Source: a candidate division WOR-3 bacterium (lineage in GTDB: Bacteria > Hydrothermota > Hydrothermia > LBFQ01). From it: a stretch of 64,000 bases of DNA. Of this stretch, positions 15,001 through 21,000 are shown piece by piece. The stretch is from assembly GCA_039802605.1 (NCBI GenBank), contig JBDRWW010000002.1, positions 1-64,000 of the forward strand. Reading direction: 5' to 3'. A program made the position numbers. Positions within the stretch are counted from its first letter, which is position 1. Every line of letters starts with the position of its first letter.

Positions 15001-18000
15001 ATCCTTTATAATATGCATCCTATGCTAATGTTATCCCTTTACCTAATTTCCGCCGATGGTGATACATTGGAGAGGTCAAGGGAAGAAATAGCAAAGTTTG
15101 CCGCATCGCAGTGTATATTGGGGTGCGCCGCATACCCAGTAGCAACAGCGATATTTGTTGGAGCGTATACCGAAAATTGGGATTACGCAGGATGTACGGG
15201 TTTGATGACACCCCTGGCATGCCTAACCGCAAGTGGAGTTTATGCCCTCTCATCCCCAATTAAAAAACCTATGGCCGCCGCATCCTTTACGGGTGCAATA
15301 GACGGCGCTTTATGGTCTTTACTAATTTATGGGAATATTGTCTTTTGGGGAAATTATTATGACGACGGTAAAAAACTCTTTTCAACGCTTATACTTTTTG
15401 GTTTATCGGGTGGAAACCTAGCGGGACTATATTCGGGATACCTTGGGGGTTCGGAAGGTGCATACATTTTGAAAACATATTCGGCCTTTTATGTACCCTA
15501 TACATATTTCCAAGCAAAGAGGTTAATCTTGGGAAACTTTGCGGGGAATTATTCGGAAGACGAATTTAAGGTGGATCTCTCAATTGCAATGGCCTTATCC
15601 ATAGGTGGGGGATTGGGAACATACTATTTAACAAAGGACAATTATGAAATTACCGGTGGAGACGCCATTTTTATAGGGGCAAATGTTATAAAGGGTGCGG
15701 TAATTCTTGAAACGCCCATAAAACTCGTTTATATAAACACAAATCCTATTTCGCAGGATTTTAACCCGATGTTATTCAGCGGCGCTTTTGTTTACTACGA
15801 TGACCCAATATACGACAGGCTTTCAGCGGCAGCGTATTTAAGCGGTATGGCCTTGGGGGCATACATATCCTATAAAATCGCAAAGAAGAAGGACCTAAAC
15901 ATATTGGAAGGCCTTGTTTATTCCACCGTTCCAATTTTCGCATATTACGCCGGTATGGCCCCTTGGATAGTTTTGAGAGAAGACTATTATAGGATTATGC
16001 CCTTAGTTCAGGTTTCCTTTGATGTTGGGGCATCTTACCTGCTATATAAACTGTTTTGAGAATATTAAAAAGGCAACCCTACCCCTTGAAGGATAGCCCT
16101 CAATAAAGTAGTTCCTACGGTTTAAAAGGTTATCAATTCCAAAGGCTAAACTATACCCTTTAATGCCAAAGTTCAAGGATATGTCTAGGTTTAGTATGTA
16201 ATCAACAAAACGGGTGTTTGCCGGGTTTGTGAATCTCGGGTCAATGTACAAGAGGGAGAGGGAAAAAATTTTATAATTGAGGAGAACGGAATATGTATTC
16301 CTCGGCCTGTAAACCATCCTATTGCCGTTATCGTAATACGCGTAAAGTCTATCGTATTTAAACCTTAAAAATCCAAATCTACCGTAGAGGGAAATCCCCC
16401 ATATGTTCCCCGCCGAGGAGTTTTCCGGCCTCCAAATTCCCCCCACATTCCTCCACTCTATTATATCCCAAACCCTTCTGAAAAACCCGGATATTTGCAA
16501 ACCCTTAAATTCAAACTCCGAACCTATTGTAAATGTTTTTTCGTTTTTTAAGTTGGGATTACCCTCGGCACCCGAACCCCTCCAATACAACTCGTCAAAG
16601 GATGGAATGCGGTTTGAAAGGGAAAGGTTAAATGCCGAATGTTTAAATGGGATATTCAAGAAACTTCCAAAACCCACCCTTCTCCCATCATACCAAACAT
16701 TTCCCGAAATATAGCCGTTAAAGACATAAAGGTTTTTTCCGAGGTATATTAGTGGGCGGATTTTTTCCCCAATGTTTGAGCTCCTTATACCTTCCGCATA
16801 TGTTAAGATTTTATATCCCAAAACATCCCATTTATAACCCGCCCGCAAATTCGTATGGTAAGAGTATATGAATTTATCCCTCCATTCCCTTCCGAGGATT
16901 AAAATGTTGAAATCCCCATAACCCATAGCAACCCTTATATCCGTTTGTACTCCGGAAAGTTGGGGGAAGCCCTCCATCCCCGAAGTCCTCTTCCTTGAAA
17001 CCCTTAAATCCCCAAAACCCCTATCGTATAAAAACACCCCTTCGGCATAAAAAAGGCTATCCCTACCACCCGTTAAATTCCCCAAATCAAAACCCCCATA
17101 TTCGCCCTTATACCCAAAGGAAAATCCCCCAAAACCGTTTAAAAAGCCGTAATATTCCCTTCCCTGGGTATAAGAAAAGTTCAGGTTCCCGTAAATTGAA
17201 TAAGGGGAAAATCCACCCTCATAAACGGATAGATTGCCGAACAAGAAGGGGGAAATATCGGTTAAGTCCGCATATGAGTTTTGGGGTTGATTTATCAAAA
17301 TACCGTTTAAAAAAACCGCATTCCCCTTTGGATGCCCACCTTTTAAAGAGATTCCGGAAAGGTCGGCATAAGACCCATAAGTAAATCCATAGGAAAAGGG
17401 TAAGGTGGAGGCCATAACCCATAGGGGCTTATTGTATTCGAGCGTTATTGTATCCCCTAAGGGGGCCTCCACCAAAATTTCCGGAAGGAAGAAACTCACC
17501 TCTTTATAACCTTCTTAACTTTCCCGTTATCCCCGACAAAGAAATAAACCCCGGTTCCTATGGGTTTAACAACCCTCCTACCCGTTATATCATAAACCGC
17601 TTTTATGTTTTCGTAGGATTTATGGGCGTATTCCTTCGCCGAGAGCGTATTCGGCGATAGGGTCATTGATATGGGTCCAACATCAACAGTAGCGGTATGT
17701 TCTACGGAATTCGTGTTTCTGTTGAAAACTATTATATTCCCGTTTGATATGTAATCACCCGCGGCGATTATAAAAATCCTCTCGTTATAAATCTCCCCTT
17801 CGGAGAAACCGTAATAAGAACCCAAGGGTAGGGGTATAAAGGCCCTGCTTGAAGGTGTGAAATAACCCGCCCAGGAGTATCCCAAAGCCAAAAGTGTATC
17901 GGTATTAACATACTTTAAAAAGCCTATGTTTTGAGGTGTTGGTGTGCTATCAAGGATTGCCAGAGGATTTGTTGAGATTAAATAAACCTTTCGCGTTGTG

Positions 18001-21000
18001 GCATCAAACCAATCCCCACCTGAAACAAAGGCGGTATCCGTTCCGTAGAATTCCATATAAAGGAGGTTTATCCCAAACTTCAAGGAATCAACTATATTTC
18101 CTAGGGTATCAATCTTGTATAGGGTTGATGTATCCGTTTTAAAGCTATCCCTGTTATAACCCGTTGATATCGCGTAAAAGTATCCACCGTTAAACCCCAC
18201 ATATTGCGGACTCCTCCAAACCCTTAGGCCCCAAACCATACCCTTTGTGGTTAAATCGTATAGGACAAGGCTATCGGAAGCCCATAGTGAGATGAGGATT
18301 TTGTTGTTGTTGATAACAGCCGAATAGGGGTTTGAGGAGGGGTTTAAGGTTATACTATCAACCAAGAATGGGTAGTTGTCGTCTTGGAGGATGTATATCT
18401 TGCCGTTTCCGGAACTTACCGTGTAAAGGTATCCCGAAGAGTACAAAACCTTGTTTAGGGTGGAGCCATGCGGCTCTATACCGTTTCGCAGGGTGAAGGG
18501 TGGGGATGCGTTCATTATTGAGATTGAACCCGGCGAAGACCAAATGCTATGAACCACAACAACCCTTTGCGCAAAAAGTGGCAAAGACAAAAGCATTAAA
18601 GAAAATAACCTTTTCATAGTTTTCCTTTTAACGCTTAAAACCTTACCCCGGGCGGCGAGCCCCGGCACCGCCCTAAGAGGCCCTCCCGGGCAGGTCTTCC
18701 GGCTCGCGGGCAATCTACTCCCCGGCCTTCCCACCCCTAAGGGCAGTGGCCTTTATGGGTTTCGCTCCCGCTCACGGCCGCCGGGACGGCTCCCGATTTT
18801 CACGGGATTCCCTCAGCCCGGGAGGTGGATATTATAAGGGGGTGCTTTACCCGTCTTTATAATTTCCGCTTGAAAGTCCTCTTTTTATGTGTTGGGAACT
18901 CTTGTAGGTCGCAGATGGCGGAGGGGTTTGCAAAAAAGTATTTTAAAAATTGGGAGATTTATTCCGCAGGCTCAAAACCCGCCGGTTATGTCCATCCTCT
19001 GGCGGTTGAGGTTATGAAGGAAAAGGGCATAGACATATCAAACCAGAGGTCAAAGGGGATATGGGAATTGCCGAATTATGAATGGGATTTGGTTGTTTTG
19101 GTATGTTCCGATGAGGAGTGCCCCTACATACCCGGTAAGAATATTGAGGTTTGGGGGATAGAGGACCCCATAGGAAGGGATATAGGGTTTTACCGTAAGG
19201 TTAGGGATGAAATAGAGAAAAGGGTTTTAGAGTTGGCAAAATATGGTAATAAGGAGGGTTAGGTTAAAAAACTTTAAAGCCCATGCGAATTTTGATAGGG
19301 AGTTTGGAAAATTTACGATAATATTGGGCAGGAATAATGCGGGCAAGAGCACAATCCTTGAAGCTATTTATAAAGCCCTATACTCGGATAATAAGGGTTT
19401 TGGAACGGGTTATATAAGGAGGGGGGAAAGGGAGTTTGTGATAAACATCCAATTTTCGGATGGTTATGAGGTGGAAGTTATATATCCGGGAACAAAGGCG
19501 GCAAAGGTTTATGGGAATAACGGAATTTTAACCTTAAAAGAACTTAGGAGAATCCTAAGGTTTCCGGAAGATGACGAAACCTTCAAGTTTTTGGTGATGT
19601 TTGAACAGGGGAGTTTAGACGAGTTTGACAGCAGAACATACGAAAGGGTTAGAAAAATTTTAAAATTGGATTTTGCGAATGAAATTATCAAGGCGGCGGA
19701 TGGGGTTATAAGGGATTTAAAGAAGGTAATGGATAACGCCGAAAAGAAGATCCATCCGGGTGTATTCCACGCCAAGAGGGTTTTAAGGAGTTTAAAGTTG
19801 GAGTTGGAAGAGTGTAGGTGTGGTATAAAAAGGTTGGAGAGGTTTTCCAATAGGATACAAAGGAAAATATTTGAGCTTGAAGGGCAAAGGGATGAGATCA
19901 GAAGGGAAATAGAAGTTTTGGAAAAACTTAAAGGTGAGAGGGAAAGGAAAACCGGAATGTTAGAGGTTTTAAGGAAGAGAAAGGGGGAGATTGAAGGGAA
20001 GATTTTGGAGTTTGAGAGGACTTTTCCGCAAAACCTTCCAAAGGATAGGGAAATACTAAAAGCCATAAGTGAATACATTAAAAACGCGAAAACATTTAGG
20101 GAAAACCTTGAAAAGGCCAAAGAATACGAAAGGTTGAGGGGGGAGTATGAAAACATAAAAAACGATTATATGGAAAGGGCGCAAAATCTCGGAAAAACAA
20201 TAGAATATTTGAGGGGTTTTTACTCGGATTTGAAAAGGGTTGTGGAAACCCTTACGGGCATTCCGGAAGGCCTTATCGGTAAAACCCTTGAAGAATTAAA
20301 TGCCGAAATGGAAAACTTGAAGGCGGAGAGGGATAAGGTTATGTCGGAAATTGGACATTTTCAAAAGAGGTTGGAGAGTTTAAAAGATGCGGGTGATAGG
20401 TGTCCCGTATGCGGAGAATCCATGCCTTCCGAAAAGAGGGATAAACTAATAAAGGAAAGCCGTCAAATCCTAATGGAATTGGGCGAAAGGGAAAAGCGGA
20501 TAAGGGATAAGATAAAAGCCTTAGAAAAAAACATTCAAAAGCTAAACGAGTTAAGCGTTTATTTAAAAGCCTTGGAGGATAAACTCTCTGAATGCCCGGA
20601 ATCCTTAAAGGATAAGGCCCAAATTTGGGTTGCAAATGCGCTTAAAAACCCACAAAATGTTTTAAAAGATGTTGGGGAATTTGGTAAGGGTTTGCGTTCG
20701 GAGTTGGAGGAATTGGAGGGCAATTTTAAGGTTAAACAGGGGGAATACGAAAGGAGATTAAAGGAACTTGAAGAATCTTACGGGATATGTTTGGCATCAA
20801 AAAAAGAACTTGAAAGGATAACAAAGATGTACCCAAATATTGAAGATATTTCAAGGGGTTTGGATGAAGGGACCGTTGAAGAAAGTCTTAGGAAACTTGA
20901 AGAATACGAGAGGAATAAAGGGGAGATAGAAAAAACCATTAAAGAGTTGGAGGAAATACAAAAAACCCTTGAAGGTGAGGAGTTTAAGGATTTGGACAAT

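Follow-up and report, generated by a model that had tools for sequence, protein, structure and literature searches.

A cobalamin riboswitch ahead of genes for a putative BtuG-like propeller and a small BtuB-like transporter in a candidate division WOR-3 bacterium

The window analysed here is a stretch of 64,000 nucleotides from an uncultured candidate division WOR-3 bacterium (assembly GCA_039802605.1, contig JBDRWW010000002.1). On its minus strand lies a cobalamin riboswitch, with two overlapping genes, g0364 and g0363, directly downstream of the aptamer. The features of the locus are as follows:

18672..18836, minus strand: cobalamin riboswitch aptamer (RF00174), 102.4 bits, E 1.7e-24
18618..18671, minus strand: leader, from the aptamer end to the ATG, read from the sequence
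17496..18617, minus strand: g0364, 373 amino acids plus stop, predicted to be secreted, a BtuG-like propeller of seven blades ending in a short tail of T9SS type
18570..18617, minus strand: predicted signal peptide of g0364, residues 1-16, MKRLFSLMLLSLPLFA, signal peptidase I type, read from the translation
17643..18569, minus strand: propeller domain of g0364, residues 17-325, from the AlphaFold2 model and VIA-align
17499..17606, minus strand: predicted C-terminal sorting tail of g0364, residues 338-373, IKAVYDITGRRVVKPIGTGVYFFVGDNGKVKKVIKR, by comparison with the genome's own tails
16042..17499, minus strand: g0363, 485 amino acids plus stop, predicted minimal BtuB-like TonB-dependent transporter (TBDT)
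17464..17484, minus strand: TonB-box-like PEILVEA, residues 6-12 of g0363, aligned with KEVLVTAS in alignment A3
17170..17385, minus strand: reduced plug of g0363, about residues 39-110, Pfam Plug, five short strands before the barrel
16048..17160, minus strand: predicted beta-barrel of g0363, about 22-24 strands (DSSP, by eye) and very short loops, about residues 114-484

The aptamer matches the full RF00174 model (positions 1-189 of 189), for which the gathering score is 31.5, and is the one cobalamin riboswitch that an RF00174 search finds in the whole genome. An earlier note had reported it at 102 bits directly ahead of g0364, and the re-measured score agrees. The leader contains a G+C-rich hairpin (GGGCGG...CCGCCC), followed by a short U run and by AAGGA, six bases 5' of the ATG. 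Its folding is no better than that of shuffled sequences (z 0.67), and a pattern scan for terminators called none in 18618..18671.

Where does g0364 begin? The ORFs 17496..18734 and 16042..17499, both on the minus strand, share four nucleotides, GTGA, in which the start codon of g0363 overlaps the stop of g0364. The gene had been placed at 17496-18668, giving 390 amino acids. The GTG at 18668, however, lies just 4 nt from the aptamer end; AAAAGGAAAACT precedes the ATG at 18617, where a typical signal peptide, MKRLFSLMLLSLPLFA/QR, opens; and the reading frame of the closest relative, L002, does not extend upstream past the same ATG. For these reasons the start is probably the ATG at 18617 and the length 373 amino acids. 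The Sec signal contains no cysteine and therefore no lipobox, in line with the earlier reading, and the same is true of all 15 rows of alignment A2, which represents the narrow family.

The AlphaFold2 model of g0364 (pLDDT 92.0, pTM 0.82) is a seven-bladed propeller of about 28 strands, with pLDDT blocks of 89-98. The first 14 Foldseek matches listed are all BtuG1, BtuG2, BtuG3, BT2095 or 3DSM (E 1.4e-14 to 4.7e-13, TM by target 0.72-0.78, 13-15% identity); re-modelling thus reproduces the confident propeller, with BtuG1-3 as best matches, that had been described before. In VIA-align, where BtuG chains are again the top matches, residues 13-326 superimpose on them with Z 31.8-34.3 and rmsd 2.2-2.9 over 293-306 aligned residues. 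The accompanying caution that other propellers score comparably was also borne out: Z is 33.7 with an archaeal YVTN propeller, 30-32 with lactonases and about 30 with N2O reductase. With others within 1-4 Z units, the fold match alone is not specific to BtuG.

Is g0364 nevertheless related to BtuG by descent? It matches no family in Pfam at E<=0.1 (already reported for E<=0.05) and none in NCBIfam. Against PDB sequences the best E is 0.8 for the single sequence and 0.11 for the narrow family profile. To direct searches of this kind the propeller is indeed invisible, as had been claimed; to a chain of profiles it is not. With hhalign, the narrow family profile A2 aligns to A4 at 99.7% (E 1.6e-25, 231 columns), A4 being ten lipoprotein homologs, riboswitch-linked relatives from other families of the same class. 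When A4 is compared with the PDB, 12 of the 13 best rows are BtuG1/2/3, BT2095 and 3DSM (E 1.5e-9 to 1.8e-6), and the wide profile A1 aligns to BtuG chains over almost the whole of the profile (E 8e-29 to 6e-22). By profile comparison, then, the propeller family is homologous to the solved BtuG proteins (PDB 8BLW, 8BAI, 8BMY, 8P97; 3DSM) through one intermediate step, and the homology of g0364 itself to BtuG is distant but provable. Among 1.84 billion entries, g0364 has homologs in 53 representatives at E<=1e-3, six at E<=1e-10 and four at E<=1e-30, the last count being unchanged.

In Bacteroides thetaiotaomicron, BtuG1-3 are surface lipoproteins that form the lids of BtuB and bind B12 with pico- to femtomolar affinity. 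g0364 is a distantly homologous propeller of the same size, and its gene, like that of BtuG, is under a cobalamin riboswitch and adjoins one for a BtuB-like TBDT. It differs from BtuG1-3 in sequence (13-15% identity, and no match to PF16819, which finds nothing anywhere in the genome), in gene order, the propeller coming first here, and in its C-terminal T9SS-type tail. It also has a predicted signal peptidase I signal where BtuG, according to Wexler 2018 (PMC6143338), has a lipobox cysteine and export signal. The BtuG2 contact residues (10.1101/2024.02.16.580637) were mapped by eye onto g0364 through the BtuG3 chain 8p97_B. Gln93 falls on Asn55, Ser131 on Asn96, Gln219 on Asn184 and Asn107 on Ser68/Ser69; by this mapping, four central contacts in g0364 still have a side chain with an amide or hydroxyl group, at positions that are also the generic ones of YVTN repeats. 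In g0364 the Glu55-Gly56-x-Phe58 loop (loop 1) is shortened, neither Glu55 nor Trp194 has a counterpart, and an Arg common to BtuG1 and BtuG3 is Tyr98. The alignment indicates that BtuG contact residues are partly kept in g0364 and that charged contacts are not. The host is probably not a member of the Bacteroidota.

Of the strands found in the genome's TIGR04183-positive tails, the tail of g0364 has the first and the last and lacks the middle hairpin. Its first strand (YD-x-x-GR-x-V) and last two (G-V-Y-F ... K-V-I-K-R) are those of the genome's 27 tails over cut-off. Type A sorting domains of the type IX secretion system (T9SS; TIGR04183 / PF18962; RgpB) likewise lie at the extreme C-terminus, but span about 70 residues against about 36 here. 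TIGR04183 has 46 matches in the genome; the g0364 tail itself is matched neither by TIGR04183 or PF18962 nor by an HMM of the 27 own full-length tails, and a PDB search gives a weak hint of the RgpB tail 5HFS (E 0.64). An HMM of the short tail matches 43 of 4264 ORF tails in the genome. This short tail also forms the extreme end of about a dozen further ORFs, and all eight look-alikes in relatives end 0-2 codons before the stop. These comparisons uphold what had previously been judged by eye, and place the tail among the genome's own T9SS C-terminal sorting domains, as a member of a short class. A SprA homolog is present above cut-off (374.5 bits, with neighbouring in-frame matches); the PorU-like and PorV-like matches fall under theirs (312 bits against 420, and 58 against 250).

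The model of g0363 (pLDDT 80.5, pTM 0.83) consists of a plug and a barrel, and the Foldseek rows listed at ranks 1-15 all belong to BtuB of Escherichia coli or B. thetaiotaomicron (E 3.5e-20 to 1.5e-16, TM by query 0.65-0.69). Pfam Plug matches residues 41-99 at E 1.4e-3 and 19.6 bits, short of its cut-off at 23.9, and ESM Atlas assigns the protein at 0.98 to TonB-dependent receptor clusters. g0363 had been said to look like a short TonB-dependent receptor; it is predicted to fold as a very small BtuB-like TBDT. Alignment A3 conserves the TBDT motifs R-x-P-x-F-x-E-L-Y-W ... G-N-P-x-L-x-P-E and a C-terminal Y-P-x-x-G-R. Like BtuB (E. coli 1NQE; B. thetaiotaomicron BtuB1-3), g0363 has a plug and a barrel of about 22 strands and stands under a B12 riboswitch. 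Unlike BtuB it has 485 amino acids, against 549-628 residues in the matched chains (14-17% identity), a plug of about half the size with its Pfam match under cut-off, and no signal peptide. By the consensus for TonB boxes we take PEILVEA to be a TonB-box-like stretch; in the relatives L035 and L036 the aligned KEVLVTAS follows a classical signal peptide. Ahead of PEILVEA in g0363 there is none, and the frame is open for just five codons upstream.

Homologs of g0364 occur in all 11 other genomes of the family, and RF00174 lies upstream of the propeller in each of these loci (12 of 12 with the present one); both recounts agree with the earlier note. Its count of none in seven for the sister family gave way: g0364 as a single sequence finds weak matches in three of the seven genomes, and a profile search is positive in all seven (E 1.7e-20 to 2.6e-34). 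The propeller family extends beyond a single family of genomes. Within the genus, a TBDT homolog adjoins the propeller in 5/5 loci; in a sister genus the propeller keeps its riboswitch and the TBDT homolog lies on another contig, without one. Outside the family, 10 of 12 TBDT loci have the riboswitch immediately upstream of the TBDT; in the other two the gene runs beyond the fetched stretch. A g0364-like propeller gene stands beside the TBDT in eight of these loci. In other families of the phylum the two adjoin in all of eight additional loci, and a B12 riboswitch falls within the fetched stretch in three of them. In seven of these eight the propeller matches a model of the genome's own C-terminal sorting domains; two of the seven were scanned with Pfam, and both match Por_Secre_tail. 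The conserved linkage of propeller and TBDT despite changing gene order supports a shared role in B12 uptake, as part of a reading that we hold to be rather likely as a whole.

On that reading the locus is a diverged BtuBG-type system for putative B12 capture, an interpretation of sequence and models that we favour with some confidence. It would serve uptake across the outer membrane as a B12-repressed module of the BtuB-BtuG type. To judge from the known behaviour of its family, the riboswitch would permit expression of the two-gene mRNA under cobalamin shortage. g0364 would pass the inner membrane by Sec, and its short C-terminal tail would route it through the type IX secretion system to the cell surface, where the propeller face may take up corrinoids and hand them to g0363. 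The latter would be translated by coupling at the overlapping stop and start, with TonB powering import through it. The C-terminal T9SS anchor would stand in for the N-terminal lipid anchor of Bacteroides BtuG. From the earlier reading this retains the riboswitch operon, the BtuG-like propeller, the missing lipobox, the T9SS-like tail and the short receptor; it drops the invisibility, the confinement to one family, the start and the use of the fold as BtuG-specific. A likely need for B12 also counts in its favour. CbiC and CobS were searched for in the 90%-complete genome and not found. The genome holds one ORF with a B12-binding domain (139 amino acids, with DGHDRG), two TonB_C matches and two Peripla_BP_2 matches.

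g0364 might instead bind corrinoids untethered, as a released 'corrinophore' that docks on g0363 in the way a hemophore docks on its receptor, or as a periplasmic binder with a non-working tail. T9SS cargo can be either anchored or released, the tail without its middle hairpin is missed by TIGR04183, and the sister genus, with riboswitch and propeller in one place and the TBDT elsewhere, fits a free-standing binder. We think this unlikely: that about a dozen ORFs and 8/8 look-alikes share the terminal short tail argues for a working signal, and tight TBDT-propeller linkage across the phylum is expected of a capped transporter. Slightly less likely still is a B12-regulated accessory propeller that binds no corrinoid, whether a lid or scaffold or a lactonase/YncE-like enzyme with another substrate. 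Propellers of other function score almost as high as BtuG, the charged BtuG contacts are not kept, a quick tree gives the family a long stem branch of 1.54 changes per column, and a second propeller of the same kind in the genome is a lipoprotein with neither riboswitch nor adjoining TBDT. Yet the riboswitch stands over the g0364 family gene in every family locus, even where the TBDT has moved away, and the intermediate relatives match B12-binding BtuG chains above any natural non-BtuG chain.

Could a -1 shift where the stop overlaps yield one polypeptide from the two genes, and so supply the transporter with a signal peptide? g0363 lacks such a peptide, and its frame is conserved, with synonymous changes, up to the codon overlapping the g0364 stop; this codon is GTG in two loci, TTA in two and CTG in one, and three of the five therefore have a non-canonical start there. 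We consider such a fusion very improbable. By eye, no slippery heptamer is common to the five junctions; each has a Shine-Dalgarno-like stretch 10-11 nt upstream, and in the TTA loci AAGGAGG is followed 5 nt later by an ATT start codon. The sister genus carries the two genes on separate contigs, and its TBDT too has just a hydrophobic start of about 10 residues. Eight of the nine Plug-bearing ORFs of the genome also lack a classical signal peptide, which points to a lineage habit, and a propeller joined ahead of the TonB box would be periplasmic.

The order of domains proposed for g0364 recurs in DUF5074 / YncE-like propellers with Por_Secre_tail, which are unstudied database clusters. ESM Atlas holds one with PF18962 in 100% and PF16819 in 98% of 86 members, commonest in Bacteroidota, and one with PF18962 in 100% and PF21783 in 63% of 51 members (Candidatus Cloacimonadota); both have a feature score of 0.89, and scores below 0.9 for these clusters, known from annotation alone, are leads only. 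Por_Secre_tail is found at E<=0.01 in 17 of 48 distant representatives.

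The locus lies on the minus strand and consists of a cobalamin riboswitch followed by two open reading frames, those of g0364 and g0363:

18836..18672, minus strand: cobalamin riboswitch RF00174 (Rfam 102.4 bits, E 1.7e-24, full model 1-189)
17496..18734, minus strand: open reading frame 3' of the riboswitch, containing g0364
16042..17499, minus strand: open reading frame of g0363

The riboswitch covers the whole Rfam model at a score well over the gathering threshold of 31.5 bits, as the earlier note's figure of 102 bits had indicated, and a whole-genome search finds no other cobalamin riboswitch. 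Between the aptamer and g0364 no terminator was called, and this stretch folds no better than its shuffles. Because the downstream gene is convergent and the upstream gene, which is ArsC/LMWPc-like, is divergent, the operon is made up of g0364 and g0363 alone. As called, the ArsC-like gene (window 18825-19262, plus strand) begins at a GTG that puts its first 12 nt inside the 5' end of the riboswitch; this start is probably too far upstream. The next divergent gene (window 19243-21663, plus strand) encodes an ATPase like Rad50/SbcC that has a zinc hook and in NCBIfam matches archaeal Rad50 models best.

Where does g0364 begin? A start at GTG 18668, giving 390 amino acids, had been proposed. ATG 18617 has AAAAGGAAAACT in front of it, and translation from there begins with a typical signal peptide, MKRLFSLMLLSLPLFA/QR. 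The closest relative has no open frame upstream of the equivalent ATG. For these reasons g0364 most likely starts at ATG 18617 and encodes 373 amino acids rather than 390. At its other end, the g0364 stop overlaps the GTG start of g0363 in the shared sequence GTGA. A frameshift fusion of the two genes was judged unlikely: across five loci of the genus the start-codon position of g0363 reads GTG, TTA or CTG, a Shine-Dalgarno-like stretch precedes it by 10-11 nt, and translational coupling fits this arrangement better.

The g0364 product (P0001) had been described as invisible to sequence search. This is true of direct searches. Pfam yields no family at E<=0.1 and NCBIfam none, the best phmmer match among PDB sequences has an E of 0.8, and a profile of 15 close family members (alignment A2) reaches 0.11 against the same sequences. 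PF16819 (DUF5074) has no match in the whole genome at E<=0.01, with a positive control in B. thetaiotaomicron. Relatives are few: 8 among 5.8 billion clusters and, among 1.84 billion representatives, 53 at E<=1e-3, 6 at E<=1e-10 and 4 at E<=1e-30, the last count being the one reported before. Pfam domains in the 48 of these 53 weak representatives that were scanned (E<=0.01) are YNCE in 19, DUF5074 in 9 and Por_Secre_tail in 17, mostly below the curated cut-offs.

The description fails once an intermediate profile is used. Ten lipoprotein propellers from other families of the class (alignment A4) share an invariant lipobox Cys20; their genes adjoin genes for TonB-dependent transporters (TBDTs), and in the loci inspected the TBDT is preceded by a riboswitch. 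A2 aligns to A4 in hhalign at 99.7% (E 1.6e-25, 231 columns). Against the PDB, 12 of the 13 best rows for A4 are BtuG1/2/3, BT2095 and 3DSM (E 1.5e-9 to 1.8e-6), and the remaining row is a designed propeller. The homology of P0001 to BtuG, the B12-capturing surface lipoprotein that serves as the lid of the Bacteroides transporter BtuB, is therefore demonstrable in two steps. A quick-method tree of 31 propellers, from which 6 of the 15 A2 rows (near-duplicates) and the sister-family propellers were left out, has a support of 0 at its deep nodes, so it gives no order for lipobox and sorting tail.

The fold agrees with this relationship. AlphaFold2, run with 53 sequences, models P0001 as a seven-bladed beta-propeller like 3DSM and BtuG2 (pLDDT 92.0, pTM 0.82), and the best 14 Foldseek rows are BtuG-type (E 1.4e-14 to 4.7e-13), which bears out the claim that BtuG1-3 are its closest structural matches. 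In VIA-align, BtuG chains score Z 31.8-34.3; an archaeal YVTN propeller scores 33.7, lactonases 30-32 and N2O reductase about 30, all within 1-4 Z units of BtuG. Because other propellers come so close, the fold alone does not define membership in the BtuG group.

Two features set P0001 beside BtuG, one as a likeness and one as a difference. Like BtuG, which is linked to btuB under a cobalamin riboswitch, g0364 lies next to g0363 under such a riboswitch. A passage of Wexler 2018 (PMC6143338) gives BtuG a lipobox cysteine and a lipoprotein export signal at its N-terminus. P0001, in contrast, has no cysteine in residues 1-40, and its signal reads LFA/QR, with no lipobox, in agreement with the earlier note. 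None of the 15 A2 rows has one either, whereas the class relatives in A4 keep Cys20.

In place of a lipid anchor, P0001 has a short tail at its extreme C-terminus, where other secreted proteins of the genome carry theirs, together with an N-terminal Sec signal. Is this tail a T9SS sorting domain? The 1.65-Mb genome has 46 matches to TIGR04183 (T9SS type A sorting domain), 28 of them over the cut-off; the 27 of these 28 that were extracted end 0-14 codons ahead of the stop. The P0001 tail is absent from the 46, matches neither TIGR04183 nor PF18962, and is not detected by an HMM of the 27 full-length tails. With that HMM, 4 of the 15 family members exceed the best of 200 shuffles (6.2 bits): P0012 and its near copy L011 at 14.6 bits, P0009 at 7.3 and P0008 at 6.9.

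The P0001 tail has the first strand (VYDITGRRV) and the last strands (GVYFFV..GKVKKVIKR) of the full tails; the 10-20 residues between them are absent. Residues 325-373 also match otherwise unrelated ORFs of relatives, and all eight look-alike tails fetched have the short form and end 0-2 codons before the stop. An HMM of the short form, built from the family itself and the 8 relatives, finds 43 matches (E<=0.01) among 4264 ORF tails of the genome; its top rank for P0001 is circular, and only the matches of other ORFs count. Roughly a dozen of these share the short spacing. Since at least 17 of the 43 (paired by eye on end coordinates) are also TIGR04183-positive, the short form grades into the full form. 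Tails of about 36 residues (YD-x-x-GRRV, 5-7 residues, GVYF-x-x-x-GKVKKVI-x-R) that TIGR04183 misses stand on roughly a dozen large ORFs that are otherwise unrelated, including those that end at the following positions:

C1:181084
C1:192777
C12:20902
C11:9827
C2:34620 (in the window)
C13:21055
C3:55169
C12:6222
C5:107646

These tails resemble a miniature T9SS sorting domain. Of the three components of the secretion machinery searched for, SprA has a homolog above its cut-off (374.5 bits, counting neighbouring in-frame matches), and the PorU-like match at 312 bits and the PorV-like match at 58 bits are below their cut-offs of 420 and 250. We conclude that the P0001 tail is a putative T9SS-type sorting signal of a short class; the shared strands and the eight look-alikes substantiate the T9SS-like piece that had been noticed by eye. 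Elsewhere in the window, a 705-aa protein (21690-23807, plus strand) that combines SLT, Amidase_2 and Golvesin_C domains with a weak T9SS tail (TIGR04183 E 0.0097) is a candidate secreted cell-wall hydrolase.

The g0363 product (P0002, 485 aa) is the short TonB-dependent receptor it had been taken for. The usual TBDT motifs are kept in an alignment of 17 relatives (A3), and Pfam Plug matches at E 1.4e-3, below the cut-off. The AlphaFold2 model (pLDDT 80.5, pTM 0.83, residues 1-48 under 50) places a small plug, about residues 39-110, in a barrel of about 22 strands (counted by eye from DSSP) with very short loops. Foldseek ranks 1-15 as listed are all BtuB of E. coli or B. thetaiotaomicron (E 3.5e-20 to 1.5e-16), and other TBDTs follow from E 2.3e-16. 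Because BtuB is the smallest well-studied TBDT, this ranking may partly reflect size.

The N-terminus of P0002 is unusual. No signal peptide is seen by reading, and the upstream frame is open for 5 codons. A TonB-box-like PEILVEA occupies residues 6-12, and the protein starts three residues ahead of the stretch aligned to the TonB box of relatives with classical signals. Eight of the nine Plug-bearing ORFs of the genome likewise open with a short hydrophobic stretch (8-15 residues) and lack a basic region there, as in MIWIIISDAFA, MLWVISQV or MMWIIAVDTIM. The Plug matches in ORFs without a classical signal are:

C12:15988-16296
C6:94515-94751
C1:61722-61931
C6:52778-52936
C1:319923-320147
C1:287335-287601
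C3:58946-59128
window 17203-17379

The sole Plug-bearing ORF with a classical signal peptide holds the match C7:56520-56813. A TBDT N-terminus from the sister genus is of the same kind, e.g. MFHIFLLQYVMPP. Signal-less TBDT starts thus look like a habit of the lineage. The short hydrophobic openings would be either an unusual export signal or systematic trouble with start codons.

How widely is the pairing kept? All 11 other genomes of the family have the propeller, with the riboswitch in front in all 11, as the earlier note had found. The TBDT adjoins the propeller in 5 of 5 loci of the genus; in all 4 complete loci of the sister genus it is found on a different contig and lacks the riboswitch. 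Homologs had been counted in 0 of 7 genomes of the sister family, but a profile search finds the propeller in all 7. The gene order there is TBDT, then a tail-bearing protein of no assigned family, then propeller. Outside the family a cobalamin riboswitch lies directly upstream of the TBDT in 10 of 12 loci, the TBDT gene of the other two running off the fetched stretch, and in 8 of the 10 a P0001-like propeller gene is seen beside the TBDT.

In other families of the phylum the TBDT is paired with a propeller in 8 of 8 loci. Seven of these hold a propeller that matches the model of our genome's own T9SS sorting domains, and both of the two scanned with Pfam match Por_Secre_tail. Three have a B12 riboswitch, one of AdoCbl-II type. 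In three loci of such families (L055-L057; G129:C81, G064:C117 and G060:C123) two propeller genes follow the TBDT in tandem, one of about 350 aa with no tail and, by eye, a lipobox, the other of about 435 aa with a full sorting domain. In the sister family and in other families of the phylum, the riboswitch-controlled TBDT and the propeller are separated by a protein of 361-432 aa:

L041:2109-3194
L042:383-1468
L037:317-1453
L055:3918-5198
L056:2858-4156
L057:2760-3986

The protein ends in a T9SS tail, and the three sister-family copies share an N-terminal region, ...HGDGQW(Y/F)GQ.... Pfam assigns this 'DGQW' protein no family apart from the tail, and our genome has no homolog of it (tblastn, E<=1e-3); it may be a further B12-uptake component. 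Our genome also has a second propeller of the same superfamily (C17:5642-6610, plus strand; 322 aa, lipobox LLLGC, no tail), with neither riboswitch nor TBDT beside it and with a copy in each of the 10 other family genomes profiled.

Does P0001 keep the residues with which BtuG holds its ligand? Passages of 10.1101/2024.02.16.580637 name Asn107, Gln93, Gln219, Ser131, Ser195, Trp149, Gly56, Glu55, Arg135, Phe58, Trp194 and Trp272 as BtuG2 contacts. We bridged these through BtuG3 chain 8p97_B in its native numbering, reading the mapping by eye at about 14% identity. The BtuG2-BtuG3 offset of 11 holds at the ten residues checked (Cys21, Glu44, Gly45, Phe47, Gln82, Asn96, Ser120, Trp138, Trp183/Ser184 and Gln208) and does not hold at Arg135. 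Mapped by eye in this way, Gln93 corresponds to Asn55, Asn107 to Ser68/Ser69, Ser131 to Asn96, Gln219 to Asn184 and, to within one position, Trp149 to Trp112. Four polar positions would thus be kept as Asn or Ser, at this low identity, and the Asn positions among them coincide with generic YVTN repeat positions of 1L0Q. Three further sites, again by eye, diverge. The Arg common to BtuG1 (Arg141) and BtuG3 (Arg122) falls on Tyr98; Trp194/Ser195 falls on Thr152/Gly153 or Gly153/Tyr154, so Trp194 is not kept; and the Glu55-Gly56-x-Phe58 loop corresponds to His23-Ser24-Ile25-Trp26, two residues shorter, without Glu55. A complex prediction of g0363 with residues 17-326 of g0364, run without controls, gave a score of 0.01 and a mark of 0.32, and speaks neither in favour of binding nor against it.

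Taken together, the reading we lean towards, by a modest margin of confidence, is that g0364-g0363 is a strongly diverged corrinoid uptake module of BtuB-BtuG type, in which a short T9SS tail replaces the lipid anchor of the lid; the lid would bind corrinoids at the cell surface in a complex with the transporter. A broader reading is more tentative, and we would put it at somewhat under even chances. Lid-assisted capture of B12 by BtuB-BtuG would then not be an invention of Bacteroidota; it would be wide in an uncultured, thermophilic-looking phylum of small genomes, with the anchor of the lid having switched between a lipid at the N-terminus and a T9SS domain at the C-terminus. On this broader reading, reduction would have gone furthest in the window: the mini sorting tail measures 36 residues, the 485-aa transporter has half a plug and lacks a classical signal peptide, and the lid gene comes first under the riboswitch.

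Both folds, the riboswitch and the two-part system have been described before; no printed account was found of the probable host phylum, the type of anchor, the mini tail or the minimal transporter. Wexler 2018 (PMC6143338), Abellon-Ruiz 2023 (PMC10404256) and 10.1101/2024.02.16.580637 place BtuG, and lipoprotein-capped TonB-dependent transporters generally, in Bacteroidetes only. A literature search that left most subscription journals outside its scope found no report of BtuG outside Bacteroidota, nor of one with a T9SS tail, and no paper among those listed links BtuG to WOR-3, Cloacimonadota, Fibrobacterota, Ignavibacteria or thermophiles. 'T9SS' and 'type IX' are absent from 10.1101/2025.07.01.662609, as is 'T9SS' from PMC13616437.

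The same two-part arrangement recurs under B12 riboswitches across a phylum nearly without SusD (1 of 201 sampled genomes, that match having 3 internal stops; the B. thetaiotaomicron control is positive). A lid that comes in lipoprotein and T9SS-tailed forms would be a natural experiment on tethering to the transporter, and if the mini tail releases the propeller rather than anchoring it, the product would be a secreted 'corrinophore'. If the module is what it seems, the pair would offer structural work a very small and probably heat-stable B12 'super-binder' and TonB-dependent transporter. Riboswitch context combined with stepwise profile search would recover members that BLAST-based surveys miss, and a short class of T9SS sorting tails would be going undetected by current models.

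What of the host? With moderate confidence we place it outside Bacteroidota, perhaps in a neighbouring lineage with T9SS. The genomes sampled from the phylum measure 0.9-3.9 Mb. The RNA genes far exceed the genome in G+C, with 65% for the riboswitch against about 42% in its surroundings, which suggests a thermophilic host. The genome has a 139-aa ORF with a B12-binding domain and DGHDRG, two TonB_C matches over the cut-off and two Peripla_BP_2 matches; CbiC and CobS were not found in this 90%-complete genome. Together with the single cobalamin riboswitch, this gene content fits a B12 auxotroph dependent on uptake. The window also holds a TPP riboswitch (47266-47378, minus strand, 78.6 bits) and tRNA genes at 49820-49892 (plus strand) and 44900-44983 (minus strand). 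Two short adjoining ORFs at 13599-14467 (plus strand), of 135 and 129 aa and both with FG-GAP repeats, may be one gene split by a frameshift or an assembly error.
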